A stretch of 64,000 bases of DNA from Acidimicrobiales bacterium (GCA_037969565.1 JBBKXQ010000103.1:107-64106); one strand, 5' to 3'. Positions 2,612 through 21,525 are shown, counted from the first letter of the stretch. A program made the numbers and translations. The notes: a model not told the origin generated them from the sequence alone.

Positions 2612-2632
2612 GTCGGCTCGCTTCGGCTGAAA

Positions 2633-3127: not shown

Positions 3128-3166
3128 GGTGAAAACGTAGCGGACCGCTAGCCTCTGTCGCTCCAA

Positions 3167-3249: not shown

Positions 3250-3291
3250 CGGAAAGTCCTTCGGTCCTGCGGGGCCCAGGGACGCGATGGG

Positions 3292-3323
3292 CCCGAGCAT
3301 CCGCTCGGGTCTATTTGTTTGTT
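3292..3323 (+). terminator. Rho-independent terminator after tRNA-Tyr
   Basis: 7-bp stem CCCGAGC/GCTCGGG with a 4-nt loop, followed by the T-rich tract TCTATTTGTTTGTT. Confidence 0.7.
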
Positions 3324-3513
3324 CTGCCCGGCGTGGCGACGGCGCGCCCCGAGGTGCCAGATGTTGGGGCAGCGCCATTGAGTTGGGTCGAACGCGGGCT
3401 AACGTCGGTGGGTCCTTTCTGGACCGCCGCAACGACCCGTTGTGGTGCCGGCTCCCTCGAACCGGTTCCCGTGGCGTCCCTCGCCCCGCAGCCCCCACCT
3501 CGGAGACAATCGA

Positions 3514-4458: not shown

Positions 4459-4499
4459 TCAATCGCCTTCTGTTACGCGCACCAAATCGTCTGAACTAG

Positions 4500-4529
4500 A
4501 GTGCGCCGGGTCTTCGGGCCCGGCGCACT
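4500..4529 (+). terminator. Strong intercistronic stem-loop between the binding-protein and permease genes (attenuating terminator or mRNA stabiliser)
   Basis: Perfect 11-bp GC-rich stem AGTGCGCCGGG/CCCGGCGCACT with an 8-nt loop, followed only by a weak TTTG. It lies 42 nt after the stop at 4458. Confidence 0.5.
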
Positions 4530-4565
4530 CGCGTTTGCATCAACCTCTCCCGTCTACGCCAATCC

Positions 4566-5399
4566 ATGGAGTGTCAGTTGGCTGAATCAGTCGTGAATGT
4601 CGAGGGCCCAGCCCCGAACTCGGTGACCACATTCGACTTCAAAGACAGCCCGTGGTGGCTGTTGGTGGTACTCGGCATCGTCGGTGCGATGATCTTGGCC
4701 GTCATCTTCAGCGACAACTACCAGGAGGCGTTCTTCGAGATCATTCCCGGTCTCAAGCAGACGCTGCTCCTCACCGCTGGGTCATTCGTGGTTTCGATCG
4801 TGCTCGGGTTGGGGCTCGGGATCGCCCGGCAGAGCAAGAATCCCTTCATCAACACTCCGGCCCACGTCTACATCGAGTTCGTTCGGGGCGTCCCGATGCT
4901 CGTCTGGATCTTCGCCATCGCCCTGGTGCTGATACCCGAGACGGTCAATGGCCTCAACTCCCTTTTCGATCTGACCCTCGCGACCCGAGACATCCCCCAG
5001 ATCTGGCGTGGTGGTATCGCGCTCTGCTTGTTCTACTCCGCCTTCATCGCCGAGGTGTTCCGAGCCGGGATCCAGTCGGTTCCGAGCGGACAGATCGAGG
5101 CCGGCAAAGCACTTGGCCTCAATGGCCGAACGATCATGCGGAAGATCACGCTTCCACAAGCCGTGCGCAACACGCTGCCTGCGCTCGGTAACGACTTGAT
5201 CTCGCTGATGAAGGACACCTCGCTGGTGTCGGTCATCGCGGCGACAGAACTCACATACAAGGCCCGCATCTACCAAGGCAGTTCCTTCCGGGTTCGAGAA
5301 ACCTTCTTCGTGTTGATGGTGATCTACGTGACGCTCACGCTCGTGTTGTCGCTTGCGCTGCGTTTCATCGAGGCCCGCCTCGCCATTCCCGATCGTTGA
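4566..5399 (+). CDS. Amino-acid ABC transporter permease (His/Glu/Gln/Arg/opine family)
   Basis: Contains the EAA-loop region IEAGKALGLNGRTIMRKITLPQAVRNTLPALGNDLISLMKDTSLVS and multiple hydrophobic spans. Confidence 0.9.
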   Translation: MECQLAESVVNVEGPAPNSVTTFDFKDSPWWLLVVLGIVGAMILAVIFSDNYQEAFFEIIPGLKQTLLLTAGSFVVSIVLGLGLGIARQSKNPFINTPAHVYIEFVRGVPMLVWIFAIALVLIPETVNGLNSLFDLTLATRDIPQIWRGGIALCLFYSAFIAEVFRAGIQSVPSGQIEAGKALGLNGRTIMRKITLPQAVRNTLPALGNDLISLMKDTSLVSVIAATELTYKARIYQGSSFRVRETFFVLMVIYVTLTLVLSLALRFIEARLAIPDR

Positions 5400-5516
5400 C
5401 GCAACCCGGCTGCCCACCCATCGCACGGCACTCACGCCGGCAGGGGCGAGGCCTCGATGCACCCAGTTGCGTGGGTCTCCCGAGCCAGTGGCGCCACGTT
5501 GCTAGATTCAGGCGGC

Positions 5517-6752
5517 ATGAAACTCGAGTCGATCAAGACCTGGGCCGTCGCTCCACCATCGGGGATCGGGGGCGCATTCTGGGTGTTCGTGAGGGTCACG
5601 ACCGACTCTGGTGTCCAGGGCATCGGCGAGTGCTATGGCATCCCCTATTCGGCCAACATCGCCTGTGAGATGGTGGAGGACACCTTCGATCGGTTCATCG
5701 CCGGCGAGGACCCGCACAACATCGAGGCCATGTTTCGCCGCGTCTATTCCGCCGGATTCACGCAGCGTCCGGATCTGACCATGATGGGGGTTTTCAGCGG
5801 AATTGAGATCGCCGTGTGGGACATCCTCGGCAAACTCGCCGATCAGCCGGTCTACAACCTCCTTGGCGGGGCATTTCATGAACGGCTGCGCACCTACACC
5901 TACCTCTATCCTGCGAGTGTCCACGACCCGTCGCTGCCGTCTGCTGATGAGGCGGATCCCTACCACGACGGTGATGCTGCCGCCGAGCGAGCACTCGTCT
6001 ACGTCGAGCAGGGCTTCACCGCCGTCAAACAGGACCCCACCGGGCCGTACAGCTTCCAGGGAGGCCGAGAACTCTCACTCCATGAGCTCCGCCGATCCGA
6101 GGAAAACGTTCGCAAGGTCCGCGAAGCCGTCGGCGACCGCTGCGACATCCTGTTCGGCACCCACGGCCAGATGACCACGTCGTCGGCCATACGCCTCGCT
6201 CGCCGAATCGAGAAGTACGACCCGCTCTGGTTCGAGGAGCCTTGTCCTCCCGACCAGGTGGCCGCCATCGGCAAGGTGGCTACGGCCACATCCATCCCCA
6301 TCGCCACGGGCGAGCGACTCACCACCCGCACCGAGTTTCACGAGGCCTTGAAGGCCGGCGTCTCCATCGTCCAACCCGACATCGGACGATCGGGAGGTAT
6401 CTGGGAAACAAAGAAGATCGCCGTGATGGCCGAACTCTTCAACGCCCAGATCGCGCCCCACATCTACTGCGGACCAGTCGCCCACGCCGCCGCCGCTCAC
6501 GTCGGATTCAGCTCACCGAACTTCCTCATTCTCGAAACGATCCAAACGCCGTTCCACGATCAGGTCCTCGTCGAGCCACTGACGTGGGAATCCGGGTTCA
6601 CCGTCGCGCCGAACACGCCCGGCCTCGGCATCGAACTCGACGAAGCGGTCCTCGACGCTCATCCCTACACCGACCGCGGCGGTCGACTTCACCTGGAGAT
6701 GACGCAGATCCCACTCAGTTCAGACAACGAGAAATCCGTCTTCGAGTTGTGA
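5517..6752 (+). CDS. Enolase-superfamily enzyme (mandelate racemase/muconate lactonizing family, sugar-acid dehydratase-like)
   Basis: Start at ATG 5517 (MKLESIKTWAV...). Family-typical features include GIGECYG, AVWDILGK, the EEP motif (LWFEEPCPP), ATGERL and QPDIGRSGGI. Confidence 0.8.
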   Translation: MKLESIKTWAVAPPSGIGGAFWVFVRVTTDSGVQGIGECYGIPYSANIACEMVEDTFDRFIAGEDPHNIEAMFRRVYSAGFTQRPDLTMMGVFSGIEIAVWDILGKLADQPVYNLLGGAFHERLRTYTYLYPASVHDPSLPSADEADPYHDGDAAAERALVYVEQGFTAVKQDPTGPYSFQGGRELSLHELRRSEENVRKVREAVGDRCDILFGTHGQMTTSSAIRLARRIEKYDPLWFEEPCPPDQVAAIGKVATATSIPIATGERLTTRTEFHEALKAGVSIVQPDIGRSGGIWETKKIAVMAELFNAQIAPHIYCGPVAHAAAAHVGFSSPNFLILETIQTPFHDQVLVEPLTWESGFTVAPNTPGLGIELDEAVLDAHPYTDRGGRLHLEMTQIPLSSDNEKSVFEL

Positions 6753-6770
6753 CTGGCCGGGACCACCGGA

Positions 6771-7346
6771 TCATTGCCTCGCCGATCCGTGGTAGCCGGA
6801 CGGGATGAAGATCGTGGGGATTCCGAGGCCCTCGAACATCTTCACGTTTCGGGGATCATCGTCGATGGCGAGTATCGGCTCGTAGTTTCGGGACCGGAGT
6901 TGCTCGACGGCGTGCTGTTTCATCAGGGTGGATCGTCGGTAGTCACCCGATGCTCTCATGATCAGGAGATCCCAGCGGATCCTGTTCGCCTGAATCCACT
7001 TCAACGTGATTCCGTCGATCCAGTCGGACCGAGCGGTGACGAGAGCAATGACATGATCGCCGGAGACCGTCTCCAAGAGCCGGGCCTGCTCGACCAGTAG
7101 CCCATCTCCGCCGGCGGCCAAGAAAAAGCTGTCCCAGTCCTGCCACCGGCTTTCGAGATAGTGCTGACGATGTCGGGCGTCGGCAAGTACACCATCGATG
7201 TCAATGACAAGGGTCGGTGCAGGCTCGGTCGGGTCAGACCGACGAATTCCGTCAGGCCAATACCACGGCGGTTCGTCGTCGTTGTGGTCGAAAGTCAGTG
7301 GCTCAGTCTTCGTCGTTGGATGCAGCGCGGTTGGCAATTTCGGCAA
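6771..7346 (-). CDS. HAD-superfamily phosphatase
   Basis: Motif I VIDIDGVLAD, motif II LVTARS, motif IV-like LAIDDDPRNV. The only in-frame starts are TTG codons that overlap the acs 3' end by about 40 nt, so the start is uncertain. Confidence 0.6.
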   Translation of the reverse strand: MPKLPTALHPTTKTEPLTFDHNDDEPPWYWPDGIRRSDPTEPAPTLVIDIDGVLADARHRQHYLESRWQDWDSFFLAAGGDGLLVEQARLLETVSGDHVIALVTARSDWIDGITLKWIQANRIRWDLLIMRASGDYRRSTLMKQHAVEQLRSRNYEPILAIDDDPRNVKMFEGLGIPTIFIPSGYHGSARQ

Positions 7347-9258
7347 AGACGTCGGGGTCGGCGAGGGTCGTGGTGTCGCCGAGACCTCGCCCGTCGGCGA
7401 CGTCTCGCAAGAGCCGCCGCATGATCTTTCCGGATCGGGTTTTCGGGAGGTCGGGAACGATGACCACCGTTTTCGGTCGGGCGATCTTGCCGAGCTTCAC
7501 GCCGACGTGCTCTCGGATCTCGTTGCCGAGCTCCTCCGAAGCCTCATGGGTGCCACGGAGAATCACGTATCCGATGATGGCCTGACCGGTGAGCTCGTCG
7601 GCTCCCCCGACCACGGCCGCTTCGGCCACCGCAGGATGATCAACGAGCGCCGACTCGACTTCGGTCGTCGAAATCCGGTGACCCGACACGTTCATCACAT
7701 CGTCGACTCGGCCCAACAGCCAGATGTAGCCGTCCTCGTCGAGCTTGGCCCCGTCGCCGGCGAAGTACTTGCCCTCGTAGGTGCTCCAGTAGGTGTCTTT
7801 GTATCGCTGCTCATCGCCCCAGATTCCCCGCAACATCGACGGCCAAGGGCGCGAGATCGTCAGGTAGCCGCCTCCCACCTCAACCGTCTTTCCGTTGTCG
7901 TCGACCAACTCGGCGAAAACCCCGGGGATGGGTCCGGTGGCCGATCCGGGTTTCGTGGTGGTGACCCCGGGCAACGGCGAGATCATGTGGCCGCCCGTTT
8001 CGGTCTGCCACCACGTGTCGACGATGGGGCGTTCACTGCCACCGATGTGCTCGTGGTACCACATCCATGCCTCGGGATTGATGGGTTCACCGACTGTTCC
8101 GAGCACCCGAAGTGACGACAGGTCATGCTTCTGCGGTTCCTCCACGCCCCACTTCATGAACATCCGGATCGCCGTTGGCGCCGTGTACAGCTGGGTGACG
8201 CCATAACGTTCGACGATGTCCCAGAGCCGATCTCGGCCTGGCGTGTCGGGTGTGCCTTCGTACATGACCGACGTACAGCCGTTGACCAGTGGGCCGTAGA
8301 CGATGTAGCTGTGGCCTGTCACCCAGCCGATGTCGGCGGCGCACCAATAGATGTCGGTGTCGGGCTTCAGGTCGAAGACGTACTTGTGGGTGAAGGCCAC
8401 CTGGGTGAGATATCCACCCGTGGTGTGCATGATCCCCTTCGGCTTTGCGGTGGTGCCAGAGGTGTAGAGAAGGTAGAGAAGCTGCTCGGCGTCCATCGGT
8501 TCGGCGGGGCAGTCGTCGGAGGCCTCGGCCATGAGGTCGTGCCACCAGTGATCGCGACCATCGACCATCTCCGGGTTGGTGTCGCAACGGTTGGCAACAA
8601 TGACATTTTCGACGCTGGGGGCTCCGATTTCGAGCGCGGCATCGACGGTGGGCTTGAGGAGGGCCGCTGCTCCCCGTCGGTAACCGGCGTCGGCGGTGAT
8701 GATCAGCTTCGCTTGGGCGTCGACACAGCGGTCAACGATCGCATCGGCAGAGAACCCACCGAAGATCACGGAGTGAGCGACGCCGATTCGGGTGCAGGCG
8801 AGCATCGCGATCGGGAGTTCGAGGATCATGGGCATGTAGATGGCGACCCGGTCGCCCTTCTCCAAACCAAGGCCCTTCATCACATTGGCGAACTTCTTCA
8901 CTTCGGTGAGCAAGTCGGCGTAGGTGAGCGTGATCTTGTCGCCCGGCTCGCCCTCCCAGTGGAAGGCGACTTTGTCACCTCGACCGGCCTCGACGTGGCG
9001 ATCGAGACAGTTGGCGCTCACATTGAGCTTGCCGTCGGCGAACCACTTGGCGAAGGGCAACTGCCAGTCGAGTACTTCGGTGAAGTCCTGATCCCAGGTG
9101 ATCAACTCACGGGCTTGACGGGCCCAGAAGGCCTCGTAGTCAGCCTCGGCCTCGTCGTAGAGCGACCGGTCGTTGGTGTTGGCTCGAGCTCGAAACGCAG
9201 CCGACGGAGCGAAGGTTCGTGCTTCGTTCTCGTACACCTCGATGGCATCTGCTGGCAT
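7303..9258 (-). CDS. acs: Acetyl-CoA synthetase
   Basis: 651 aa from ATG 9258, with AGGAG 6 nt upstream. AMP-binding motif YTSGTTAKPKG, plus WWQTETGG and RTRSGKIMRR, match Acs. Confidence 0.95.
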   Translation of the reverse strand: MPADAIEVYENEARTFAPSAAFRARANTNDRSLYDEAEADYEAFWARQARELITWDQDFTEVLDWQLPFAKWFADGKLNVSANCLDRHVEAGRGDKVAFHWEGEPGDKITLTYADLLTEVKKFANVMKGLGLEKGDRVAIYMPMILELPIAMLACTRIGVAHSVIFGGFSADAIVDRCVDAQAKLIITADAGYRRGAAALLKPTVDAALEIGAPSVENVIVANRCDTNPEMVDGRDHWWHDLMAEASDDCPAEPMDAEQLLYLLYTSGTTAKPKGIMHTTGGYLTQVAFTHKYVFDLKPDTDIYWCAADIGWVTGHSYIVYGPLVNGCTSVMYEGTPDTPGRDRLWDIVERYGVTQLYTAPTAIRMFMKWGVEEPQKHDLSSLRVLGTVGEPINPEAWMWYHEHIGGSERPIVDTWWQTETGGHMISPLPGVTTTKPGSATGPIPGVFAELVDDNGKTVEVGGGYLTISRPWPSMLRGIWGDEQRYKDTYWSTYEGKYFAGDGAKLDEDGYIWLLGRVDDVMNVSGHRISTTEVESALVDHPAVAEAAVVGGADELTGQAIIGYVILRGTHEASEELGNEIREHVGVKLGKIARPKTVVIVPDLPKTRSGKIMRRLLRDVADGRGLGDTTTLADPDVFAEIANRAASNDED

Positions 9259-9289
9259 GGCGCGCTCCTCTTGCGGGACGTGGACCGCT

Positions 9290-9859
9290 CTAGTCAAGCC
9301 GCGTCGTCGTCAATGGTCCAGCGGCGACGGCAACGAGGCGGGCCACACCGTCCTTCTCCTCATGATCAATCACGTGGAGAGACGCGAACGCCCTTCGGAG
9401 TTCACCTTCGCCGGTTCGGAACGGCCCGGGAGCAGCCCCGACTTCGCTGAGGCAGATGACGACCAGCATCCCTCGTGGGGCCAGCCGATCGATCATCGAT
9501 TGATCGAGGCGTGCATCTCGAAAGAGCTGGCAGAGGATCAGATCTACCGCCGGACCTTCGGGCAGACCACGATCGAGATCATGAACAGTGAAGTGAGCGT
9601 GCACGGCGGCGGCCCTCGCGCTGGCGGCGGCGAGACCGATGGCGACCGGGGACACATCAAAGCCCCAGACATCGAGACCTCGCGCTGCGAGCCAGAGCGA
9701 CGAAGCGCCACGGCCACAAGCCACATCGAGCGCCAACCCCGACGTGGGAAGGAGATGGGCGATCGGGGCGAGATGGCGCGACGGCGCAATCTTGTTCTGC
9801 GGCTCGGCGACACCCGCTTCGTAGCGTTCGTTCCAATGATCCCGGTCGGAGTCGGCCAT
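9290..9859 (-). CDS. Class I SAM-dependent methyltransferase
   Basis: Motif I LDVACGRGASSLWLAARG followed by VWGFDVSPVAI; 189 aa. Confidence 0.75.
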   Translation of the reverse strand: MADSDRDHWNERYEAGVAEPQNKIAPSRHLAPIAHLLPTSGLALDVACGRGASSLWLAARGLDVWGFDVSPVAIGLAAASARAAAVHAHFTVHDLDRGLPEGPAVDLILCQLFRDARLDQSMIDRLAPRGMLVVICLSEVGAAPGPFRTGEGELRRAFASLHVIDHEEKDGVARLVAVAAGPLTTTRLD

Positions 9860-9883
9860 CAGGCAGAGTACTCACGACGACGG

Positions 9884-11899
9884 TCAAGATCGTTGAGGAT
9901 CCGGCAGGTCGAGCAAGGTGGAAAAGGTCGGCCCCAACGTGCTCGAGTAGGCGTCCGTGATGTGGTGCTCGTCGTTCCAGACGTACTCTCCGTTGTCCTC
10001 GAAGAAGCAATCCTCGAACGGGCACAACAGGTCGACAGGGTCGATGAGCAACCCGCCGAACTCCTCGACGACCGCGGCCTGGACCCGGTCCAAGTCCTCC
10101 GTGCTGGCCTGCGCCTCGGCTCGGCTCAACACGCAGGAGCTGCGATCGTCTCGCTGCGATGCGCAGTCGAGCGGGGCGATGTCGTTCTTCGGTGTTGCGA
10201 GGATGACGACGAGTTCGGCCCCTCGAGCGCGAGTGATTCTCATGAACTCGTCGAGGTTCATCTCCCATTGCAGCAATTGATCCTCGGCAACATCGCCACT
10301 CGCATCGAGCAGGTCTTCGTACCCGGCCGAGTGGCTCAGGATGATCCGGTCTGGTTCGAGTTCGGCTACCGCCGAGCCGAGACCGACGCGCATGGCGGCG
10401 CACCACGGTGCCTCGGAGAGCGTCCCATTTCCGATGACGGTACAGCTCCCACCCATTGCTCGAACGACCTCACCCCCCGACGCAATGACCGCCGACGAGA
10501 TCCCGGGGGCCCAGTTCGCCATGTGTGAATCACCGACGAGAAGCGTCCGCTCAGCGCCCGGCGCTCCGTCGCGGCACTGGCTCAACAGCTGTTCGACGTT
10601 CGACGTCGAACACTCCGCAGGAAGGTGGGGCCAATCCGTCCGGGCATCAGCCAAGGCCAACAGCGTCGGTTGTTCGAGCGTACGAGCAGCCTGCCAAGCG
10701 AAACCCGCCAGCAATACCCAGCTCGAAGCAAGCATGCCGACGACGACCACGGCACTCCGAGAGCGTGATGCACCGATCCACCGATTGCGTCGGACCGGCT
10801 CTTCGATCCAGCGGTAGGAGATCACGGCAGGAACGAGGCCGAACAGGGCAAGAGCCAGCGAGACGGACCAGCTGCGAGTCGTCTCGAATCGGAATGGCGC
10901 CCATCGTTCGAGAGCGGCTCGCCCCAACACGAGAGTCGGCCAATGCCAGAGGTACCACGAGTACGACCAGCGCCCGATCTGCTGGACCGGCTCGAGGCGA
11001 AGGAGGCGATCCATGGGGCCCGTGTCAGCGTGGGCCATGACCAGCAGAAGCGTCGCAAGGACCGGCAGCGTTGCGATCCAGCCCGGAAAGGCTCGGTCGG
11101 GAGAGATGATCGCCAGCGAGAGCAACAGAAGAATGAAGCCGCCGATGTGCAGGATCGTTCCGCGGCGAGGCGACATCGTGGCCCGTCGTACCTCTGGCCA
11201 GGTCAACGCCAACAGGGCGCCGGCCCCGAGTTCCCAGCTTCGCGAGAGTGAGTTGTAGTAGGTCATGGGGGACGGCATGCGAACGTCGGCGATGGCGTGG
11301 AGAAACGAAATCGCAACGAGGGCAGCGGTGATGGCGAGCACAACGCGTCGATGGCGGCGGATCCCGACAACCAGGGCGGGAACGGCGACGATGGCCGGCC
11401 AGACGACATAGAACTGTTCCTCCACCGAGAGCGACCACATGTGAAGGAAGGGACTCGCTTCGGCTGAGTCGCCGAAATAGCTTCCCCGCAGAGAACCGAA
11501 CCGAATGTTCGCCCAATAGAACGACGAGGCCCACGCGTCGGTCACGCGGTCCTGCAGGGTGAATGGGACGAGTACGACGAACGATGCCGCAAGCGTCACC
11601 ACGACCATTGCGGTCGCAGCAGGAAGTAGGCGCCTGGCCCGCCGCACCCAGAAACCAAGGAGGTCGACCGATCCCTGCTCTGCGACTTCGGCGAGCAGGC
11701 GCTGTGTGATCAGATACCCGGAGACGACGAAAAAGACGTCGACTCCGATGAAGCCGGCACCAAAGAAGGGAACGCCGGCGTGGAACGCCACCACGATGAT
11801 GATCGCCACTGCCCGCAGGCCGTCGATGTCGTGGCGAAAGGCCACGGGCTGACGCGAAGAGTCCACCTGGTAGTCATCGGCACCGGCGACCGAGACCAA
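9884..11899 (-). CDS. Acyltransferase-3 family membrane O-acyltransferase with C-terminal SGNH domain (OafA-like)
   Basis: The N-terminus FRHDIDGLRAVAIIIVVAFHAGVP...GVDVFFVVSGYLIT is the AT3 signature. About 10 hydrophobic spans follow, then a soluble tail containing LLVGDSHMANW (SGNH block I). Confidence 0.85.
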   Translation of the reverse strand: MVSVAGADDYQVDSSRQPVAFRHDIDGLRAVAIIIVVAFHAGVPFFGAGFIGVDVFFVVSGYLITQRLLAEVAEQGSVDLLGFWVRRARRLLPAATAMVVVTLAASFVVLVPFTLQDRVTDAWASSFYWANIRFGSLRGSYFGDSAEASPFLHMWSLSVEEQFYVVWPAIVAVPALVVGIRRHRRVVLAITAALVAISFLHAIADVRMPSPMTYYNSLSRSWELGAGALLALTWPEVRRATMSPRRGTILHIGGFILLLLSLAIISPDRAFPGWIATLPVLATLLLVMAHADTGPMDRLLRLEPVQQIGRWSYSWYLWHWPTLVLGRAALERWAPFRFETTRSWSVSLALALFGLVPAVISYRWIEEPVRRNRWIGASRSRSAVVVVGMLASSWVLLAGFAWQAARTLEQPTLLALADARTDWPHLPAECSTSNVEQLLSQCRDGAPGAERTLLVGDSHMANWAPGISSAVIASGGEVVRAMGGSCTVIGNGTLSEAPWCAAMRVGLGSAVAELEPDRIILSHSAGYEDLLDASGDVAEDQLLQWEMNLDEFMRITRARGAELVVILATPKNDIAPLDCASQRDDRSSCVLSRAEAQASTEDLDRVQAAVVEEFGGLLIDPVDLLCPFEDCFFEDNGEYVWNDEHHITDAYSSTLGPTFSTLLDLPDPQRS

Positions 11900-11943
11900 A
11901 GCAAGTGTCAGCCGAGCGCCGACCGGTGTGAAATGTCGGGCAA

Positions 11944-12573
11944 CTACGGCAGGTCGTAGCGACGACGAAGCCCGTCGACGAGGATGTCGAGTCCGGTTTC
12001 GAACATCTCGGGACCAGTGATTTGCGACACCTCGGCCACGAACTCCATGAGCTCCGGGTCGGTGAGATCGTGGGTGACTGGACCGCCGTTGGTGCGGAGC
12101 TGCGCCATTGTGCCGAGTTCGCTGGCCGTGTGTCCCATCACGAAACTCACGGCGAAGTGAAGGGCGAAATGAGCAGAATCGATCGAGAGCCCGACGCGTC
12201 GGAATCGTTCGTGCGCCCAGTAGAGAACCGTGAAGGCCCGCTCGGAGCGGGCGGGCCGGGCCGAGAACAGTTCGAGCGCAGCCTCGTGGCTGATCAGGAC
12301 TTCATGAAAGGCTCGGAGGCCGAGCCGAATAGCCGCTTCCCAGTCTTCATCCGCCACATCCGGCAATTGGATCTCGGCATACAGGAGGTCGAGAACGGCG
12401 TCGAGCAGGTCGGCCTTGTTCGTGACGTAGTGATAAAGCGACATGGCCTCGACGCCGAGTTCTGCTCCCAACTTGCGCATCGACAGTCCGGCCAGGCCGT
12501 GTGCGTCGATCAGTTCGAGCGCCTTGGCCGCGATTCGATCTCTACTGAGAGCTGGTCGCTCGACAACAGACAT
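11944..12573 (-). CDS. TetR-family transcriptional regulator
   Basis: N-terminal HTH region IAAKALELIDAHGLAGLSMRKLGAELGVEAMSLYHYVTNKADLL; 209 aa. Confidence 0.9.
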   Translation of the reverse strand: MSVVERPALSRDRIAAKALELIDAHGLAGLSMRKLGAELGVEAMSLYHYVTNKADLLDAVLDLLYAEIQLPDVADEDWEAAIRLGLRAFHEVLISHEAALELFSARPARSERAFTVLYWAHERFRRVGLSIDSAHFALHFAVSFVMGHTASELGTMAQLRTNGGPVTHDLTDPELMEFVAEVSQITGPEMFETGLDILVDGLRRRYDLP

Positions 12574-12582: not shown

Positions 12583-13512
12583 CTACTGGACCGATGATTC
12601 CGCTGGCCCTTGCCACTGCATGCACAACCAAGAGCCCAAACCATCCGGGTCGAGAAGCGCCTCGGCTTCACTGACCCGGCTCCGCATTCTCATCGCGAGG
12701 AGATCGGGTCGAGCGGCGTGTTCGATCCAGTGGGCCCGACCTTCGGCCACGAGTTCACCGATGCCGTGTTTCACCAGGAAGTCGGATTGCGAAATCACAC
12801 TCGTTGGCGGCGGAAGCTGATCCACGGCGATGTCGGTGGTGATATCCCAGCTACCGGGGCGATCGTAGGGATCATCCCCCCGCTCATGGTTTCGGTAGGT
12901 TCGAAGCCAGCCCCCGCGATCGGCGAGTTCGCCCGTGGTGGCTGTTCCGTAATCGAAGGCCACCAACCGGCTCGGACGGCGCGCCAAAACGTTCTCGACG
13001 AGTTGCACCGCTTCGGTCAACAGCGGAGCCGGCTTGCCCGTTGGCACGTCGAGATCGGGATCGGTATCGAGCGGGATCCAACGTTCACCGTCGTCGGTCA
13101 CCTCGACCTCTTCCCAGCCCGATTCGATCCGGCGAACGATTCTGAACGGCATGTTGTCGAGCAGTTCGTTGGCGATCACGATTCCGTTCTCCAGAACCGG
13201 AGGCAACGTGATGTTGTTGGCTCGATCGACACCGATCAGTTCCCAGGCCTTCGAACAACGGGGGGCAGCCAGTGTGAGCGATCGAAGCAGGGTGCCGGGG
13301 CCCGTACCGAGGTCGATGACCGGGAATGGATCGGGTCGACCGAGTTCGTCCCACCATTGGTCGAGCGCCCGGGCCAAGACGGCCCCGAAGAGTGGTCCGA
13401 CTTCGGGACTCGTGATGAAGTCGCCCCGGCGCCCGGCGATTCCCCGGGCCGACGCGTAGAACCCGCCCTCGGGATCGTAGAGACAGCGCTCCATGTATTC
13501 GTCGAACCGCAC
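12583..13512 (-). CDS. MidA/NDUFAF7-family (DUF185) SAM-dependent methyltransferase
   Basis: GTG start at 13512. Hallmark N-terminal block YDPEGGFYA...GDFITSPEVGPLFG, then the SAM motif VIDLGTGPGTL; 309 aa. Confidence 0.75.
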   Translation of the reverse strand: MRFDEYMERCLYDPEGGFYASARGIAGRRGDFITSPEVGPLFGAVLARALDQWWDELGRPDPFPVIDLGTGPGTLLRSLTLAAPRCSKAWELIGVDRANNITLPPVLENGIVIANELLDNMPFRIVRRIESGWEEVEVTDDGERWIPLDTDPDLDVPTGKPAPLLTEAVQLVENVLARRPSRLVAFDYGTATTGELADRGGWLRTYRNHERGDDPYDRPGSWDITTDIAVDQLPPPTSVISQSDFLVKHGIGELVAEGRAHWIEHAARPDLLAMRMRSRVSEAEALLDPDGLGSWLCMQWQGPAESSVQ

Positions 13513-13536
13513 GGGACGAGGCTAGAGCGGTCTGGG

Positions 13537-13709
13537 GGTCGCAGCGGTCTGCGTGTCACGCGATCCCGAGGGACGAGGGTCGCAGCTGTCTACGAAGCAG
13601 ACCAAATGTGGTCGCAGCGGTCTGCGTGTCACGCGATCCCGAGGGACGAGGGTCGCGCCGCAAGCTCGACTCGGATGCGGGTCAGCGGTCTGCGAAGCAG
13701 ACCAAATGT
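13537..13709. repeat. Intergenic tandem direct repeat (73-bp unit, 2 copies; the second carries a 27-bp insertion)
   Basis: A perfect 47-bp copy ggtcgcagcggtctgcgtgtcacgcgatcccgagggacgagggtcgc occurs at 13537-13583 and 13610-13656. Each is followed by gtct[a/g]cgaagcagaccaaatgt (13588-13609 and 13688-13709). Confidence 0.9.
13687..13703 (-). terminator. Stem-loop immediately 3' of the nuoN stop (possible terminator or processing signal, no U-tract)
   Basis: GGTCTGC-GAA-GCAGACC, a 7-bp stem starting 5 nt after the TGA at 13709-13711. The second repeat copy holds a degenerate version. Confidence 0.35.
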
Positions 13710-15208
13710 CACAACGCGAAGTCGGTGAGGTTTCCGACCTCTCCGAGCAGCACGGTGCCGACCAGGATCGTGAAGATCAGGCAGAGGGCGAGCGCCGCCT
13801 GCAATGTTGGTGGGATGACCACGGGGGTGTGGTCTTCGTCGGGTTCGGGCATGAACCACATCTGCTTGGCGATGGCCAGGTAATAGTAGGCGGCGATCAC
13901 GGAGTTGACGGCGGCCACGACTGCGAGCGCGACACCCCACGTGTTGCCGCCGTTGGTGAGCACACGGAAGATTTCGAACTTCGCCCACCAACCGCCGACG
14001 GGCGGGATCCCGGCGAGCGAGAACAGGAAGGCCGTCATGATCGCTGTGAGCCCAGGGGCGTAGTGGAACAGTCCGCCATAGCTGCTGATCTCGCCGGAAC
14101 GAGTCTTGCGGGCCACGCTCATCACGACGGCAAAGGCACCGAGGTTCATGGCGGCGTAGATCACGAGATAGGTGACGATCGCCGACGCAGCTTGGTCGGG
14201 CCGATCGGCGTAGACGGCGAGTGGGGCCAGCATGTAGCCGGCCTGGGCCACTCCGGAATACGCCAGCATCCGAACGATGTTGGTCTGGCGCATCGCGATC
14301 AGGTTTCCGACGGTCATGGTGACCGCACTGAGCACCCACATGAGCGGCTGCACAACATCGGCCTGGCCGGGGAAGGCGAAGATCACGACACTGATCAGGG
14401 CCACGAAACCGGCGGCTTTCGAGGCAACGGCCAAGAAAGCGGTGAGCGGCGTGGGGGCCCCTTCGTAGGTATCGGGAGCCCATGTGTGGAACGGAACGGC
14501 TGACACCTTGAACCCGAATCCGATGATGGTGAAGACCACCGCCAGGGTCACCAGCGGTGCGCTCTGGCCGGCCAACGCAACCCCGATGTCGTCGAGTCGT
14601 GTACTGCCGGTGACGCCGTAGAGGACGGACATCCCATAGAGCATGATGGCCGAAGCGAACACGCCCATCAGCATGTACTTCAGGCCGGCTTCGTTCGACT
14701 TCAGATCCCGCTTACGCCAAGCGGCCAACAGGTAGGCGGGTATCGAGACAAGCTCGATCGCCACGAAAATCGAGACCAGGTCGCGGGCCGAGGTCATCAC
14801 CAACATGCCGACAACCGAGGCCGAGATCAGTTGGTAGAACTCGCTGTCGTAGTAGTCGCCCTCGAGCATGTAGTTGGTGGAGAGCAGCACGACGACGTAG
14901 CCGCTGAGGAGAAACAGCCCCTTCAGAACGAGTGCGTACTCGTCGACCACGTAGGCACCGTCGAACATCGAACGAGGAAGCTCGGAGCTGTCGTTCCAGA
15001 GCGTGACGACGGGAACGAGTGCGATCAGAAACGAAAAGCTGGTGAGCGTGGGGATCCACTTGCGAACCCGCTCGAGGCCGACAAGGTCGACGATGGTGAT
15101 GATGGCGCCGGTGAGCAGCAGGAGGAGTTCGGGCGCGGCGGCGTGCCAGTCGATGAGCGGCCGATCGAACGGGGCCTGAACCACTTGGGTCTGGAGGGCA
15201 GCGAGCAT
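13709..15208 (-). CDS. nuoN: NADH-quinone oxidoreductase subunit N (11-gene operon)
   Basis: 499-aa polytopic antiporter-like protein with KSNEAGLKYMLMGVFASAIMLYG. It is the last gene of the array. Confidence 0.93.
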   Translation of the reverse strand: MLAALQTQVVQAPFDRPLIDWHAAAPELLLLLTGAIITIVDLVGLERVRKWIPTLTSFSFLIALVPVVTLWNDSSELPRSMFDGAYVVDEYALVLKGLFLLSGYVVVLLSTNYMLEGDYYDSEFYQLISASVVGMLVMTSARDLVSIFVAIELVSIPAYLLAAWRKRDLKSNEAGLKYMLMGVFASAIMLYGMSVLYGVTGSTRLDDIGVALAGQSAPLVTLAVVFTIIGFGFKVSAVPFHTWAPDTYEGAPTPLTAFLAVASKAAGFVALISVVIFAFPGQADVVQPLMWVLSAVTMTVGNLIAMRQTNIVRMLAYSGVAQAGYMLAPLAVYADRPDQAASAIVTYLVIYAAMNLGAFAVVMSVARKTRSGEISSYGGLFHYAPGLTAIMTAFLFSLAGIPPVGGWWAKFEIFRVLTNGGNTWGVALAVVAAVNSVIAAYYYLAIAKQMWFMPEPDEDHTPVVIPPTLQAALALCLIFTILVGTVLLGEVGNLTDFAL

Positions 15209-15211: not shown

Positions 15212-16753
15212 CTACTTTCCGAGTGCGGCGACGGTGTCGGAGATCGAGGAGATCGGGGCATCGAGCACATCGAAGATGATGGCGGGCACGAACCCGAGCA
15301 CGACGATGAGGATGAGGAGCGGCACCCAGGCCACCCACTCGAAGATGCCAACGTCGTGGATGTTGGGGTCGTTTTCGAATTCTTCCGACGGTGTGCCGAA
15401 GGCCGTGCGCTGCAGCAGCCAGAGGAGGTAACCGGCGGCGAGCACGGTGCCGAGGGCGGCCACCACCATGTAGAACCGGAAGAGCCCCACATTCAGACCC
15501 GGAGCAGGTTGGTAAGCAGCGAGGATCGCGGGGAACTCACCCCAGAAGCCGGCCAACCCGGGAAGGCCGAGCGATGCCATGGTGGCGAAACCGAGGATCC
15601 AACCCATCTTCGGGGCCTGGAGAAGCAATCCACCGAGGCGCTTGATCTCGAGGGTGTGGTACCGCTCTTTGACCGATCCGGCGACGAAGAACAACATGCC
15701 GGTGATGAGGCCGTGAGCCACCATGCCGAACACGGCGGCCTGCAGACCGAACGTGGTGAGCGTGGCGATTCCCAGCATCACGTAGCCCATGTGAGCCACG
15801 GACGAGAAGGCGATCAGGCGCTTCATGTCGGTCTGGGCGAGACAGCCGAGGGCGCCGTAGATGATGCCGATGACGGCCAGGGCGCCGATGATCGGGGCCC
15901 AGTCGACTGCTGCTTCGGGAAGGATCGGAATGGCGATACGGATGAAGCCGTAGGTTCCGAGCTTGAGGAGCACCGCAGCCAGGATCACCGAGCCCTGGGT
16001 CGGTGCCTGCGTGTGAGCGTCGGGAAGCCAGGTGTGGAACGGGAACATCGGCACCTTGATACCGAAGCCCATGAACATGCCGCCGAAGATCAGCCACTGG
16101 GTCTGAGACGAGATGTCGCGGCTGGCAACCTCGGCCGCCAGCTGTTCCATGTCGAACGTGGACGAGCCGGTGACCCAGTAGAGGGCCAGAAAACTGACCA
16201 GCATCAACGCCGACCCGAACAGCGTGAAGAGGAAGAACTTGATCGCGGCGTACAGACGATCCGGGCCACCCCACACACCGATCATGAAATACATCGGGAG
16301 GAGCACGACCTCGAAGAAGACGAAGAAGAGGACGAGGTCTTTGGCAACGAACGTGCCGAGCATTCCGGTGTGGAGCACGAGAATGAGCATCAGGAAGGCT
16401 TTGGTGTTGCCCGGCTCGGGGATGTGGTCCCAGCTGTAGATGATCACCAGCGGTGTGACCAGCAACGTCAATGCGATCAGCGGAAGCGAGATGCCGTCGA
16501 TCGCCACGTGGAAACGAGCATTGACGACATCGATCCAGCCCTGGTTGATGACGAACTGGGGCGTCTGGGATGCGTCGTAGTTGAAGTCGAGCAGCAGGGC
16601 GACCCCGACGGCTGCGGTGAGCAGCGACACGCCCAGCGCGATGCTCTTGTGGGCGCTCTCCAGCTTGCCGGGAACGAGCATCATCACGGCCACTCCCACG
16701 AGGGGGAGGAACACCATCAAGCTGATGCCGTTGTCGTTCAGGAAGTCAGTCAC
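15212..16753 (-). CDS. nuoM: NADH-quinone oxidoreductase subunit M (11-gene operon)
   Basis: 513 aa with WLPDAHTQAPTQGSVILAAVLLKLGTYG, typical of NuoM. Confidence 0.95.
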   Translation of the reverse strand: MTDFLNDNGISLMVFLPLVGVAVMMLVPGKLESAHKSIALGVSLLTAAVGVALLLDFNYDASQTPQFVINQGWIDVVNARFHVAIDGISLPLIALTLLVTPLVIIYSWDHIPEPGNTKAFLMLILVLHTGMLGTFVAKDLVLFFVFFEVVLLPMYFMIGVWGGPDRLYAAIKFFLFTLFGSALMLVSFLALYWVTGSSTFDMEQLAAEVASRDISSQTQWLIFGGMFMGFGIKVPMFPFHTWLPDAHTQAPTQGSVILAAVLLKLGTYGFIRIAIPILPEAAVDWAPIIGALAVIGIIYGALGCLAQTDMKRLIAFSSVAHMGYVMLGIATLTTFGLQAAVFGMVAHGLITGMLFFVAGSVKERYHTLEIKRLGGLLLQAPKMGWILGFATMASLGLPGLAGFWGEFPAILAAYQPAPGLNVGLFRFYMVVAALGTVLAAGYLLWLLQRTAFGTPSEEFENDPNIHDVGIFEWVAWVPLLILIVVLGFVPAIIFDVLDAPISSISDTVAALGK

Positions 16754-16784: not shown

Positions 16785-19022
16785 TCATACGGCGAGGATG
16801 AACACCGCAGCCAACAGCGTGGCCGCACCGAACATCAGGGTTGCGTAATTACGGATCTTGCCGGATTGCATCTTGCGGAGGAATCCGCCCGAGCTGAGGG
16901 CAGACAGGCCCGATCCGTTGACCGAGCCATCAATGAGCCCTTGGTCGATGAACCGATAGAGGAACTGGCCGCCGAAGACGGCGCCCTTGCCTGTGTAGTT
17001 GATGACGTTGTCGATCACGTTCTGGTTGAACCAGTAGATCGCCCGGGCCAGAGGGCCCTTGGTACCCGCTGCGATCACGTCGGTGTAGAGGTGATCGAGG
17101 TAATACTTCTGCACCAACATCGTGTGGCCGGCCCGAGCAAACTTGTTGTGATCACGGAGGCCGCCCGTGACCTCGGTGGCCCGTGGGTTCTTGGCGAACA
17201 GGCGGCGGTAGTACTCATAGGTGAAGTAGATGGCCACGACACCGATGAGGGTGGCCAGGATCGCCATCGCCGGACTGGCCGAAGCGTGGCTGATCAGCGG
17301 GAAGACCTTGCCGCCACCGGGCTCGACCCAGTGTTCGAACTTCAGGCCGATGGTGTCGCCCACCCATTCGGTCGGCATGTTGATCAGACCGGCAACGACC
17401 GCGAGCCCGGCCAGCACCTGGAGCGGGATCATCATGCGGGGGCCTGGATCGTGGGGATGGTCGTGGCCCCGATATTCACCGAAGAAGACGAGCATGATCA
17501 CGCGTGTCATGTAGGCGGCAGTGAGCGCCGCTCCGAGAAGTCCGAACACGAGAGGAATGGTGTAATCGCCGTTGCCGCCAGTGCCGGGGAAGGCGCCGGC
17601 TCCCACCAAGATCTCGTCCTTGCTCCAGAAACCGGCGAGGGGGAAGAGACCGATGAGTGCTCCGGTGGCGATCATGAAGGTGACGAACGTCTTGGGCATC
17701 AGCTTCCGCAGACCGCCCATCTCGGCCTTCATGTCGAAGCTGTGATGGCAGGCGTGGCTGAGGGCTCCGGCCCCGAGGAAAAGGCACGCTTTGAAGATGG
17801 CGTGGGTGAAGAGGTGGAACATGGCGGCAGTCCAGGCGCCCATACCGAGAGCCATCACCATGTAGCCGAGCTGGCTCACCGTCGAGTAGGCCAACACCTT
17901 CTTGATGTCGTTCTGCACGAAGGCCAGCAGACCTCCGCCGACAACCGTGATGCCACCGATGAGGGCCATGGCGTTGATGCTGCTGCCGGGAATCGACAGG
18001 CCGAACCAGAACACGGGGTAGAGGCGACCGATCAGGTAGATGCCGGCGACGACCATCGTGGCGGCGTGAATCAGCGCGCTGACGGGTGTTGGACCTGCCA
18101 TGGCGTCGGGCAGCCAGGTGTGCAGAACGAACTGGCCCGATTTCGACATGACGGCGGCCATGAGCGACAAGCTGGCGACGGTGAGCGTGCCCTGACTGAT
18201 GTCGCCGTTGACGGCTGCCTCGTTGATGGTTTGGATGTCGAACGTTCGACCGGCGGCGAAGAAGAGAATCGACATGCCGACCAACAGCCCGATATCGCCG
18301 ACCCGGTTGGTGAGGAAGGCCTTCAACGCGGCGTCGGAATTGGCCTTCTCCTCCCACCAGTGACCGATGAGCGCGAACGAGCAGACGCCGACGAGTTCCC
18401 ATCCGACGATCAGCTGCAGCGTGCTTGAACTGAGGACCATGAACAGCATGGCTGCGGTGAACAAGCTGAGGAAAGCGAAGTAGTGGGTGTAACGCCGATC
18501 ACCGCTCACGTAGTCGGTGGAGAAAATGTGCACCAGCAACGAGATGAAGGTGACGACGATCAGCAGCAGAACCGACTGCCCATCGATGAGGGTTCCGATG
18601 CCCACCGCTTTGGGCGCGCTCAAGTCGTCGCAGTTGTTGTTCGGCGCCTCGCCGGTGTCGAACCAGCAGAGCGAGTTCACGACGGCGGCAGGTTTGCCTT
18701 CGACCTCTCCGCCTTCACCCGAAGCTTCAGTGGCGAACTCACCAGTACTGCTCGCCGCCAACTCGAGCCCAGAGGCCTCGGCGTGTTCGACTCCGCCCGA
18801 CTCGATCTGGGAGATCCACGTGAATCCGGTGGCAAGCGCCAGGAAGAAGCAGATGCTGACCGCGGTGACGCCGATCCAATGGACCTGCCCGCCCAGACGC
18901 TTTCCGAAGAAGAGCGTGATCAGGAACGACCCGGCCATGATCGCAGGGATCAGGAAGGCGTAATCGAACAGCCAATGGCTGACCTCGAACGTCTCGACGG
19001 CTTCGGTGGCAAAGAGGAACAT
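16785..19022 (-). CDS. nuoL: NADH-quinone oxidoreductase subunit L (11-gene operon), with an insertion in an N-terminal loop
   Basis: 745 aa with HWWEEKANSDAALKAFLTNRVGDIG and WLPDAMAGPTPVSALIHAATMV, plus a C-terminal lateral-helix region. Confidence 0.95.
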   Translation of the reverse strand: MFLFATEAVETFEVSHWLFDYAFLIPAIMAGSFLITLFFGKRLGGQVHWIGVTAVSICFFLALATGFTWISQIESGGVEHAEASGLELAASSTGEFATEASGEGGEVEGKPAAVVNSLCWFDTGEAPNNNCDDLSAPKAVGIGTLIDGQSVLLLIVVTFISLLVHIFSTDYVSGDRRYTHYFAFLSLFTAAMLFMVLSSSTLQLIVGWELVGVCSFALIGHWWEEKANSDAALKAFLTNRVGDIGLLVGMSILFFAAGRTFDIQTINEAAVNGDISQGTLTVASLSLMAAVMSKSGQFVLHTWLPDAMAGPTPVSALIHAATMVVAGIYLIGRLYPVFWFGLSIPGSSINAMALIGGITVVGGGLLAFVQNDIKKVLAYSTVSQLGYMVMALGMGAWTAAMFHLFTHAIFKACLFLGAGALSHACHHSFDMKAEMGGLRKLMPKTFVTFMIATGALIGLFPLAGFWSKDEILVGAGAFPGTGGNGDYTIPLVFGLLGAALTAAYMTRVIMLVFFGEYRGHDHPHDPGPRMMIPLQVLAGLAVVAGLINMPTEWVGDTIGLKFEHWVEPGGGKVFPLISHASASPAMAILATLIGVVAIYFTYEYYRRLFAKNPRATEVTGGLRDHNKFARAGHTMLVQKYYLDHLYTDVIAAGTKGPLARAIYWFNQNVIDNVINYTGKGAVFGGQFLYRFIDQGLIDGSVNGSGLSALSSGGFLRKMQSGKIRNYATLMFGAATLLAAVFILAV

Positions 19023-19030: not shown

Positions 19031-19330
19031 TCAGCCTTGGAGGAGGTCGGCTTCGGATACGTCGATGCTCCGACGATTCCGGTAGATGAGCAGGACGATG
19101 GCGAGTCCGACGCCGACTTCAGCGGCGGCGACAGCGATGATGAACAGGGCGAAGACCTGACCGCTGATGTCGTCGTTGAACGCACCGAAGGCGACCATGT
19201 TGACGTTGACCGCGTTGAGGATCAGCTCGATCGACATGAGAACCAGCACGCCGTTCTTGCGGGTGAGAACCCCGTAGACGCCGATACAGAACAACAGCGC
19301 CGAGAACAGCAGGAATTGATTGAGAAACAT
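19031..19330 (-). CDS. nuoK: NADH-quinone oxidoreductase subunit K (11-gene operon)
   Basis: 99 aa from ATG 19330: MFLNQFLLFSALLFCIGVYGVLTRKNGVLVLMSIELILNAVNV... The tracked ORF's 76-aa Arg-rich extension is rejected. Confidence 0.93.
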   Translation of the reverse strand: MFLNQFLLFSALLFCIGVYGVLTRKNGVLVLMSIELILNAVNVNMVAFGAFNDDISGQVFALFIIAVAAAEVGVGLAIVLLIYRNRRSIDVSEADLLQG

Positions 19331-19338
19331 GGGCGCCC

Positions 19339-19887
19339 CTAATCCCGACGGGCCACGACGACGGCCCCGATCAATGCGGCGAGAAGCAGCAGCGAGATGG
19401 CCTCGAACGGCACGATGTAGGTGCTGAAGATCGAGTCGGCGACCTGCTGGGTCCCTTGAACTTGACGATCGACGGGCAGCGTCTGGTCGTCGAATGCTTC
19501 GACCAATGAGTAGGCCATCACGGCGAAGAGCGACGTGGCCACGAGTGCACCGATCCACCGCTGCTCGTGGTCGAGATCGTCTTCAGCCCCGATTTTGGCT
19601 CGGGTGAGCATCACCCCGAACAGGAGCAACACCATGATGGCACCGACGTAGACCAGTACTTGGGTGGCGGCCGCGAACTCGGCGCCGAGGATCACGTAGA
19701 TCGCTGCCACCGACGCAAGAACGACCAGCAGATAGAGCGCGGCGTGCACGACGTTGCTGGTGGTGACCATTCGCACGGCAGCGACGAGCGCGACGAGCGC
19801 GACCACATAGAAGAAACCGTTGATCACCCACTCTTCCGTGCTGGTGAGCGAAGTCGTTTCCTGGGCAAGGACGAGGATTCCGCTCAA
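19339..19887 (-). CDS. nuoJ: NADH-quinone oxidoreductase subunit J (11-gene operon)
   Basis: 182 aa with [16 protein letters not shown]. Position is between nuoI and nuoK. Confidence 0.9.
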
Positions 19888-20384
19888 CGAGGGACCTTCT
19901 TCGCCTTGACGTCAGCACCTGGTTCGTAGGTCTCGAAATCCGGGACCGTCTCCATCCACTCACCCAGACGGGTCTTGTCGTGAAGGAGATCGGCGATCTT
20001 CGGCTCGGAGTATTCGTATTCCGGGCTCCAGAACAGCGCCTCGAAGGGACAGACCTCGACGCAGATTCCGCAGTACATGCAGAGCGAATAGTCGATGTCG
20101 AAGCGATCGAGCTTGTTGACCGAACGGGGTTTGCCGCCGGCCCGCCGAGGTGGGGCAAGCGTTTTGTGACCCTCGATGTAGATGCACCAATCGGGGCATT
20201 CGCGGGCACAGAGCATGCACGATGTGCAGTTCTCCTCGTGGAGGGCGATCACGCCGCGTGCCCGAGGAGCAGGGTCTTCCTTTTCGTGCGGATACTGAAC
20301 CGTTTCCGCGCCGTTGACCACCGTCTTGGCCAGTTCTTTGAAGGTGAGGCCGAGGCCTTTCACCAATCCCGGTACCAGCCCCAT
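19884..20384 (-). CDS. nuoI: NADH-quinone oxidoreductase subunit I, 2x[4Fe-4S] (11-gene operon)
   Basis: Start at ATG 20384 ([18 protein letters not shown]...). Cluster motifs [12 protein letters not shown] and [12 protein letters not shown]. Confidence 0.93.
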
Positions 20385-20457
20385 CAGCCGCACACTCCCT
20401 GCTCGAATCGCCCGACAGTCTGGCTGCAAGCGCTGCTCTTCGCACCCGTTGAAATGA

Positions 20458-21525
20458 TCATGAGCCCGTGAACGCCACTTTCAATACGCCGGTGACGGCG
20501 ATGTTCACCAGTGCGATCGGGATCAGCACCTTCCAGGCGAACCTCTGGAGCTGATCCTCGCGGAATCTCGGGTAGGTGAAACGAACCCAGTAGATGACGA
20601 ACGTGAGCATCAGCATCTTCACCGTCATCACGAGCGGGCCGATCACGTTGAACCAGGCCGAGTCGTACTCGAGGCCGATCAGGTCGGTGATGAAAGGCGG
20701 GATACTCCAGCCCCCGAGAAACAGGACCGAGGCCAGGAAGGCGAAGATTCCGGCGGTGGCGAATTCGCCGATGAAGAACATCAGGAAACGCATCCCCGAA
20801 TATTCGGTCATGTAGCCGCTGACCAATTCGGATTCGGCGATGGGCATGTCGAACGGCACCTGCGTGAGTTCGGCCTGAACGGCGATCACGAAGATCATGA
20901 AACCGACGAACTGCGTGAGGATGAACGGCAGGCCGAGGCCTCCGAATCCGAAGATCTCGCCATTGATCTGGGCGTAGACGATCTGTTGGAGATTGAGTGT
21001 TCCGGCTTGGATGACGACCCCGACAACGGCGAGAACCATCGGGAGTTCGTAAGCGATGAGCTGACCAGCGGCCCGCAAACCACCGAGCAAGGAGTATTTC
21101 GAGGCGCTCGACCAGCCCGCCATGAGGATCCCGATGACCGAAATCGAGCTGACCGCCAGCGCGAAGAACACGCCTGTGTCGAGATCGGTGAAGAGCGCAT
21201 TCGGTCCGAACGGCACCACGACCGCAAGCAAAAAGGTGCTGAGCAACACGACATAGGGCGCCATGGCGAAAATCGTGCGATCGGCCTTGGCCGGAAAGAT
21301 GTCTTCCTTCTGGAGCGACTTACCGACCTCGGCCAGAAGCTGGAGCGACCCGTAGGGACCAGCCTCCATGGGGCCGAGCCGACTCTGCATGAACGAGACC
21401 ATCTTGAACAGGTACAGATAGACGGTGACGCCGGCGGGTCCGAGGACCACCAAGAGCACCAACCCCATCTTCAGGAGGGTGCTCGACCACCAAGGAAAGT
21501 CGACGGCGAGGAGAGCAGCGGTCAC
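20458..21525 (-). CDS. nuoH: NADH-quinone oxidoreductase subunit H (11-gene operon)
   Basis: 355 aa with a GTG start. Contains [30 protein letters not shown] and [12 protein letters not shown]. Confidence 0.95.

Follow-up and report, generated by a model that had tools for sequence, protein, structure and literature searches.

A MidA/NDUFAF7-family methyltransferase gene behind the 11-gene nuo operon of Acidimicrobiia and a candidate target arginine in NuoD

A stretch of 64,000 nucleotides from an Acidimicrobiales bacterium (GCA_037969565.1 JBBKXQ010000103.1:107-64106), here called the window, carries two operons for complex-I-type enzymes, one of 11 and one of 14 nuo genes, and directly behind the shorter operon lies a gene for a methyltransferase of the MidA/NDUFAF7 family. 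In mitochondria, NDUFAF7 is the enzyme responsible for dimethylation of Arg-85 of NDUFS2, the NuoD homologue. The question raised by this locus is whether the bacterial enzyme, referred to below as MidA, modifies the NuoD of the operon that it follows. A sequence-only reading of the window had proposed such a link, as a hint that a bacterium, too, may methylate NuoD on arginine and may do so on one of two paralogues only. As a new hint, the first part does not stand, given that symmetric dimethylarginine occurs at this site in the bovine, human and yeast proteins and has been found by mass spectrometry in Nqo4 of Paracoccus denitrificans, whereas E. coli NuoCD was shown to lack it (Carroll 2013, PMC3750175); MidA homologues of alpha-proteobacteria were inferred to be the responsible enzymes. 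The contrast between the paralogues is real, but HTG, the state of the second one, is the standard state in Thermus and Mycobacterium.

With slightly better than even confidence, MidA is proposed to serve the upstream 11-subunit complex, which lacks NuoEFG, by dimethylating Arg-69 of its NuoD during assembly. The evidence comprises the family and fold of the enzyme, an acceptor motif present in only one of the two NuoD proteins, an exchange of arginine between NuoD and NuoB, and the order of nuoN and MidA in related genomes. The interpretation is plausible and better supported than from the window alone, and it was largely anticipated by existing work. The adjacency of an 11-subunit nuo operon and an NDUFAF7 gene is already on record for Ca. 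Actinomarina, such that the finding extends known biology and adds a modest new angle.

The acceptor arginine and the enzyme

The NuoD of the 11-gene operon (NuoD1) contains the motif GYMHRGYEKL, in which Arg-69 (codon CGG, 22681-22683) lies 26 residues after His-43; the stretch spanning Arg-69 is PIMGYMHRGYEK. In NuoD2, from the 14-gene operon, the motif is GYLHTGMEKT, with Thr-103 (codon ACG, 44718-44720). The HRGxE acceptor site thus has its arginine at the homologous position in NuoD1, and a threonine there in NuoD2. A six-frame pattern scan of the window found these two NuoD motifs only, in agreement with the earlier claim, exact to both codons, that the sole NuoD with the arginine is the one that adjoins the MidA homologue. 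The assumption behind that claim, that the methylated arginine of NDUFS2 lies in the HRGTEK motif, also held, since the site is described as an "HRGXE motif" in the literature (Carroll 2013, PMC3750175; Hameedi 2021, PMC8042128).

The difference between the two NuoD proteins is mirrored in NuoB. NuoB1, which has all four cluster cysteines, has threonine (codon 23982-23984) where NuoB2 has arginine (45931-45933) in an AGR motif. The NuoB2 residue is at the position of the compensating arginine of the Thermus Nqo6 Arg83 type, and in Thermus the Nqo6 arginine fills the same space beside cluster N2 (Hameedi 2021, PMC8042128). HTG in NuoD2 together with AGR in NuoB2 is the same state as in T. thermophilus (2fug_4/2fug_6) and M. 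smegmatis (8e9g_D/8e9g_B). Judged by these motifs, the 14-gene operon is a known Thermus/Mycobacterium-type complex I in which NuoB has taken over the arginine from NuoD, and the swap between arginine in NuoD with threonine in NuoB and the reverse fits the structural account of Hameedi 2021. The cell has one enzyme of the NuoD-arginine kind and one of the NuoB-arginine kind, and the methyltransferase gene travels with the former. Because NuoD2 has threonine and NuoB2 supplies the arginine, the 14-subunit enzyme is unmodifiable at this site; given that HTG is the standard Thermus/Mycobacterium state, specificity for one paralogue follows almost automatically.

The open reading frame (ORF) of MidA matches PF02636 (Methyltransf_28, the MidA/DUF185 family) with a score of 71.1 bits against a cut-off of 23.3 (Pfam). 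Its translation contains GDFITSPEVGPLFG, the S-adenosylmethionine (SAM) motif DLGTGPGTL and ANELLDN, such that the family hallmark and SAM motif of the sequence-only reading can be read directly in the protein. A profile of the subfamily, built from an alignment of 90 diverse MidA relatives (A1), matches three structures in the Protein Data Bank (PDB) over their full length: 4f3n from Burkholderia (2e-51), 1zkd from Rhodopseudomonas (3e-42) and 5ztz, the Dictyostelium MidA (7.5e-39). The motifs GDF(I/V)T(S/A)PE...LFG, GxGxG and A-N/Q-E-x-x-D align with the same motifs in all three. The window protein retains all invariant or near-invariant positions of the 90 relatives, including GDFxTSPE, GxGxG and ANELLDN, and is apparently an active member of the fold family, with conservation of catalytic residues judged from family-invariant positions only.

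An AF2 model of the protein, made on the same alignment, has a pLDDT of 96.5. Its top Foldseek matches in the PDB are 4g67/4f3n, 5ztz/5zu0 and 1zkd (TMq 0.71-0.80, E 1e-16 to 1e-21), and other methyltransferases score a TM of about 0.3. By these matches and the profile, the window protein is a genuine MidA/NDUFAF7-family member with the two-domain MidA fold. Identity to characterised or solved members of the family is 18-25%, and 211 of 8133 representative clusters are close to the window protein at E<=1e-30. An N-terminal extension of about 15-20 residues that is common in relatives is missing, because the reading frame is closed by a stop codon four codons before the GTG start.

Two observations touch on gene calling and naming. 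An antisense ORF of 372 amino acids (12610-13728, plus strand) overlaps MidA and was favoured by a naive gene picker that multiplies length by GC3; it was rejected because it is the minus-strand ORF that matches Pfam, has homologues in the thousands and shows a normal pattern of GC content by codon position. JGI labels many PF02636 genes of this group NDUFAF7.

Gene order across Acidimicrobiia

Within this window alone, it is a one-in-two event that the neighbour of MidA is the paralogue with the arginine. Related loci were collected from species genomes (15, by single-protein query), from metagenomes (80) and by exact look-ups (7), and neighbours were located by tblastn. The counts below cover loci L001-L096 (96 scanned, 82 informative), all from Acidimicrobiia or unlabelled metagenome contigs. 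A nuoN1-type gene lies upstream of MidA on the same strand in 72 of the 82 informative loci, within 400 nt in 63 of them and at 0.4-3.2 kb in the other 9. Where the larger gaps were scanned, the inserts are unrelated: an ECF sigma factor, a GGDEF protein, a restriction-enzyme-like protein and a kinase. In 2 loci the nuoN1-type gene is convergent with MidA, and in 8 there is no nuo gene near it.

The order does not depend on close relatives being counted repeatedly, as 25 of 32 clusters keep the adjacency when MidA is collapsed at 60% identity; the clusters that do not are scattered singletons, which looks like secondary rearrangement. The order is kept down to 37% MidA identity (L014, L015). 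In six further look-ups the 11 nuo genes are always followed by MidA, 5-125 nt away by called genes; three of these are named by source, as Microthrixaceae, Acidimicrobiaceae and an Acidimicrobiia 380-aa type. In L101 and L102 the junction of nuoN and MidA is intact although the region downstream is wholly replaced by mobile elements or unrelated enzymes. GYMHRGYEKL is exact in each of the 23 related loci that reach nuoD. The comparative loci lift the neighbourhood of MidA and the arginine-bearing NuoD above chance, and the link that was proposed from the window is strengthened by the class-wide order and by the invariant motif.

Downstream of MidA, the immediate neighbour differs by subclade and can be a TetR regulator, a sigma factor, a short-chain dehydrogenase or acetyl-CoA synthetase (ACS). 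The block found across Acidimicrobiia consists of the 11 nuo genes, MidA, a variable insert, ACS, a HAD phosphatase and an HtpX-like peptidase (L016, L097-L100). In the window (region 7303-12573), three genes are inserted between MidA and ACS: those for the TetR regulator, for an acyltransferase of the AT3/SGNH type (9884-11899) and for a small methyltransferase of class I (9290-9859).

Protein searches, one of them with the most divergent locus and another with a profile of representative clusters that the loci leave uncovered, offered no independent lineage in which to look for the linkage: matches that carry a source name are either of Acidimicrobiia lineage or from generic Actinomycetota/Actinomycetia metagenome-assembled genomes (MAGs).

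Two of the loci have irregular gene structures. In L015 (MAG MFD05942.bin.2.272, 780-11120), nuoC, nuoD, nuoL and MidA are each split into two frames, most likely by sequencing or assembly errors rather than as pseudogenes. In L102 (GCA_036704275.1, 10001-11827), the MidA domain is directly behind nuoN in one called product of 608 amino acids that also matches alpha/beta-hydrolase families; the fusion may be an artefact, because the adjacent nuo genes look fragmented in that assembly.

Weighing the proposed modification

As proposed, newly synthesised NuoD1 would be bound by MidA and receive a symmetric dimethylation on Arg-69, in HRGYEK, before NuoB1 docks or while it does so. The modification would then shape the environment of cluster N2, and the 14-subunit enzyme would offer no substrate at this position. 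The substrate, the type of methylation and the role in assembly are taken by analogy with mitochondria and Paracoccus.

Several points count against this proposal. An arginine in HRG is no guarantee of methylation, given that it is unmodified in E. coli (Carroll 2013, PMC3750175). MidA is about equally distant from the Burkholderia, Rhodopseudomonas and Dictyostelium proteins, and it may be an NDUFAF7 orthologue or belong to a paralogous branch of COG1565. In 40 of the 50 loci that reach far enough, ACS follows MidA on the same strand, nearly as well conserved there as nuoN is upstream, such that part of the synteny reflects a slowly rearranging block; synteny is downgraded as decisive evidence for that reason. 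All loci come from one class, and the counts are therefore not independent events. The quinone site of NuoD1 is atypical, with Trp-92 and Gln-144, which may weaken the analogy with canonical complex I. Lastly, the spacer in front of MidA in the window is long and filled with repeats, and a TetR gene follows MidA tightly.

The conservation of the functionally unrelated ACS, together with the restriction of the loci to one class, favours a reading in which nuoN and MidA are neighbours by inheritance, with no functional coupling, and the substrate of MidA is DNA, a small molecule or a protein unrelated to the complex. The 8 loci without nuo beside MidA and the unrelated genes found between nuoN and MidA in some relatives point the same way. 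Bacterial COG1565 proteins are mostly uncharacterised, and after expression of a Wolbachia MidA in E. coli, methylated bases were reported in the DNA of that host (PMC12455994). Loose inheritance is harder to reconcile with a junction that outlives the replacement of everything downstream, with operon-like spacers, and with an order that persists as MidA itself diverges. In addition, the family's only biochemically established substrate is encoded 9 kb upstream of MidA. The absence of coupling is thus considered unlikely, though it keeps appreciable weight.

Gene order ties the enzyme to an operon and not to one residue. MidA could accordingly serve the 11-subunit complex through another residue of NuoD1, through another subunit or in a non-catalytic, chaperone-like role, with Arg-69 unmodified. 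The arginine of HRG is ancestral, and it is kept in the unmethylated E. coli enzyme and also in cyanobacterial NdhH. Furthermore, NuoD1 and NuoB1 depart from canonical enzymes around N2 and the quinone site. In NuoD1, Trp-92 (22612-22614, in NRIDWLGSF) is at the position of Tyr87 of Thermus Nqo4, and Gln-144 (in GVQLGA) is at that of Asp139. Both replacements are present in NuoD1 and in all 23 orthologues, and the quinone-site histidine, His-43, is retained. NuoB1 is without the arginine whose hydroxylation is known from mitochondrial PSST (VVFRASPRQ; site from Carroll 2013, PMC3750175), and NuoB2 has EVFRASPRQ; a second known site of arginine modification near the quinone pocket is thus absent from the 11-subunit enzyme. 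Against a different target, the characterised members of the family all act on this arginine of the NuoD homologue, and the motif around Arg-69 never varies among the linked operons. A role of MidA at this complex that spares Arg-69 is judged quite improbable, and dimethylation of Arg-69 is preferred.

The departures in the quinone site have a bearing of their own. The residues at these positions suggest that the enzyme without NuoEFG differs in its quinone site or its substrate chemistry. Taken with the missing NuoB1 arginine, the replacements by Trp-92 and Gln-144 imply that the 11-subunit enzyme may not be a conventional quinone reductase, and the atypical site may turn out to be more interesting than the methyltransferase.

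The spacer bears on how MidA is expressed. The stop codon of nuoN1 (TGA) is at 13709-13711 and the GTG start of MidA is at 13510-13512, and the gap on this strand is exactly 196 nt, as had been stated in the sequence-only reading. This is at the long end of the range in relatives, in which a median of 58 nt separates the nuoN stop from the equivalent of MidA residue 1, and less when N-terminal extensions are counted. The spacer holds two copies of a perfect 47-nt direct repeat (13537-13583 and 13610-13656) and two of a 27-nt repeat (13583-13609 and 13683-13709), the latter with the palindrome GGTCTGC-N3-GCAGACC. None of these repeats was found elsewhere in the window or in related loci.

With such a spacer and a TetR gene so close behind, MidA may be transcribed apart from nuo here. 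It could be argued that MidA and TetR form a regulated, possibly leaderless, unit of their own in this genome, with spacer palindromes as operator or terminator and expression uncoupled from nuo. A perfect 7-3-7 palindrome does lie right behind the nuoN stop, the MidA GTG is without a Shine-Dalgarno sequence and has TAGCCT (TANNNT) at -12 to -7, as in the layout of actinobacterial leaderless transcripts, and the TetR gene starts 9 nt past the MidA stop in the window and overlaps MidA by 4 nt in L016. A promoter scan of the spacer, though, gave no consensus match, the spacer fold is no more stable than that of shuffled sequence (z = -1.3), and relatives that also carry the TetR gene, some of them with spacers of only 13-16 nt, have neither the repeats nor the palindrome. 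A separate unit is therefore regarded as very unlikely; as it concerns regulation alone, it would also be compatible with dimethylation of NuoD1. The palindrome is real, but as a TetR operator or terminator it is unconserved, with an ordinary fold and no promoter, and was set aside as a local peculiarity. TetR is conserved in the closest subclade only and is probably outside the nuo-MidA unit.

Known systems and the two nuo operons

The MidA/NDUFAF7 proteins of human and Dictyostelium share with the window protein the Pfam family, the fold and the motifs GDFxTxPE, GxGxG and A(N/Q)ExxD, and the neighbouring NuoD has H-R-G-x-E-K. Unlike them, the window protein is about 90 residues shorter (309 against 401-414 amino acids), with 18% identity to the Dictyostelium structure. 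It is encoded within or beside the operon for its presumed substrate, whose complex is without an NADH module, and its activity is predicted. Paracoccus Nqo4 is likewise a bacterial NuoD with HRG, there symmetrically dimethylated and with a MidA homologue inferred as the enzyme. The window differs in that it comes from Actinomycetota, class Acidimicrobiia, and in that the partner is an 11-subunit paralogue beside a 14-subunit enzyme that lacks the arginine. The complex I of Thermus thermophilus and Mycobacterium smegmatis resembles the 14-gene operon, with its pair of HTG in NuoD2 and AGR in NuoB2, such that this operon serves as an internal contrast, a paralogue unmodifiable at this site.

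The closest precedent is in the same class. In Ca. Actinomarina, a conserved unit of heliorhodopsin, 11-subunit nuo, NDUFAF7 (K18164/PF02636), htpX and pspE has been described with a 14-subunit operon nearby (Bulzu et al., bioRxiv 10.1101/2021.02.01.429150). Two nuo clusters were also described for Actinomarinales, with F420 suggested as the donor for the truncated one (Lopez-Perez 2020). The window, too, has a PF02636 gene behind this 11-gene operon, again with a 14-gene operon nearby; unlike Ca. Actinomarina, it has the TetR, acyltransferase and small methyltransferase genes inserted after MidA. The contrast of arginine and threonine between the NuoD paralogues, the NuoB swap and the class-wide linkage were not found in the texts of Bulzu 2021 or Lopez-Perez 2020.

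In its widest form, the proposal is that throughout Acidimicrobiia the operon without NuoEFG has, in effect, a twelfth gene, for a MidA-type methyltransferase that dimethylates only the NuoD of that operon, and that the 14-subunit complex dispenses with the modification by having moved the arginine to NuoB. This form is given somewhat less than an even chance. If true, it would offer a natural comparison, within one cell, of two ways to stabilise cluster N2, with a bearing on the docking of NuoD and NuoB. It would be the first dimethylation of a NuoD arginine outside Proteobacteria and mitochondria and, as far as the literature found shows, the first known methyltransferase to be encoded with its substrate complex. 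It would also tie the modification to an enzyme with an unusual quinone site, with Trp and Gln for Tyr and Asp. The result bears on the "proteobacterial origin" that has been proposed for such protein arginine methylation, and PF02636 genes behind nuoN in Acidimicrobiia could be annotated as likely complex-I assembly methyltransferases.

Coordinates of the features under discussion are collected in the table. The 11-gene operon has the order nuoABCDHIJKLMN, and nuoE, nuoF and nuoG are absent from it. Its nuoA, B, C, D, I, J, K and N were called by Pfam, and nuoH, L and M are ORFs with 60-94% tblastn matches to Pfam-called relatives (such as those of L016). The same 11-gene architecture is found in L016 and L097-L101. 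In the 14-gene operon, nuoD, E, F, G, H, I and N were called by Pfam and nuoB2 by PDB chains; nuoA, C, J, K, L and M were assigned from ORF order and translations only.

Table. Positions of the methyltransferase gene, its neighbours and the nuo genes in the window
Feature	Position	Strand	Basis or remark
TetR-family regulator	11944-12573	-	Pfam
MidA/NDUFAF7-family (PF02636, COG1565) SAM-dependent methyltransferase gene	12583-13512	-	309 aa, GTG start; Pfam
Repeat-filled spacer, nuoN1 to MidA	13513-13708	-	repeat analysis
nuoN1, last gene of 11-gene operon	13709-15208	-	PF00361
nuoM1	15212-16753	-	ORF position and tblastn to relatives
nuoL1	16785-19022	-	ORF position and tblastn to relatives
nuoK1	19031-19342	-	Pfam
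nuoJ1	19339-19887	-	Pfam
nuoI1	19884-20429	-	Pfam
nuoH1	20458-21525	-	ORF position and tblastn to relatives
nuoD1	21715-22887	-	390 aa; Pfam
nuoC1	22884-23672	-	Pfam
nuoB1	23697 to ~24200	-	Pfam
nuoA1	24290-24736	-	Pfam
nuoD2 of 14-gene operon	43680-45026	-	Pfam
nuoB2	45586-46179	-	match to solved NuoB/Nqo6 chains

Directly upstream of the 14-gene operon lies a cytochrome bc-type cluster (46728-51852), with genes for a cytochrome c (47753-49327), a Rieske protein (49327-50196) and a split cytochrome b (50221-51852). Given that this cluster adjoins the 14-gene operon, the window can be described as a respiratory-chain island, with two complex-I-type operons 5.8 kb apart.

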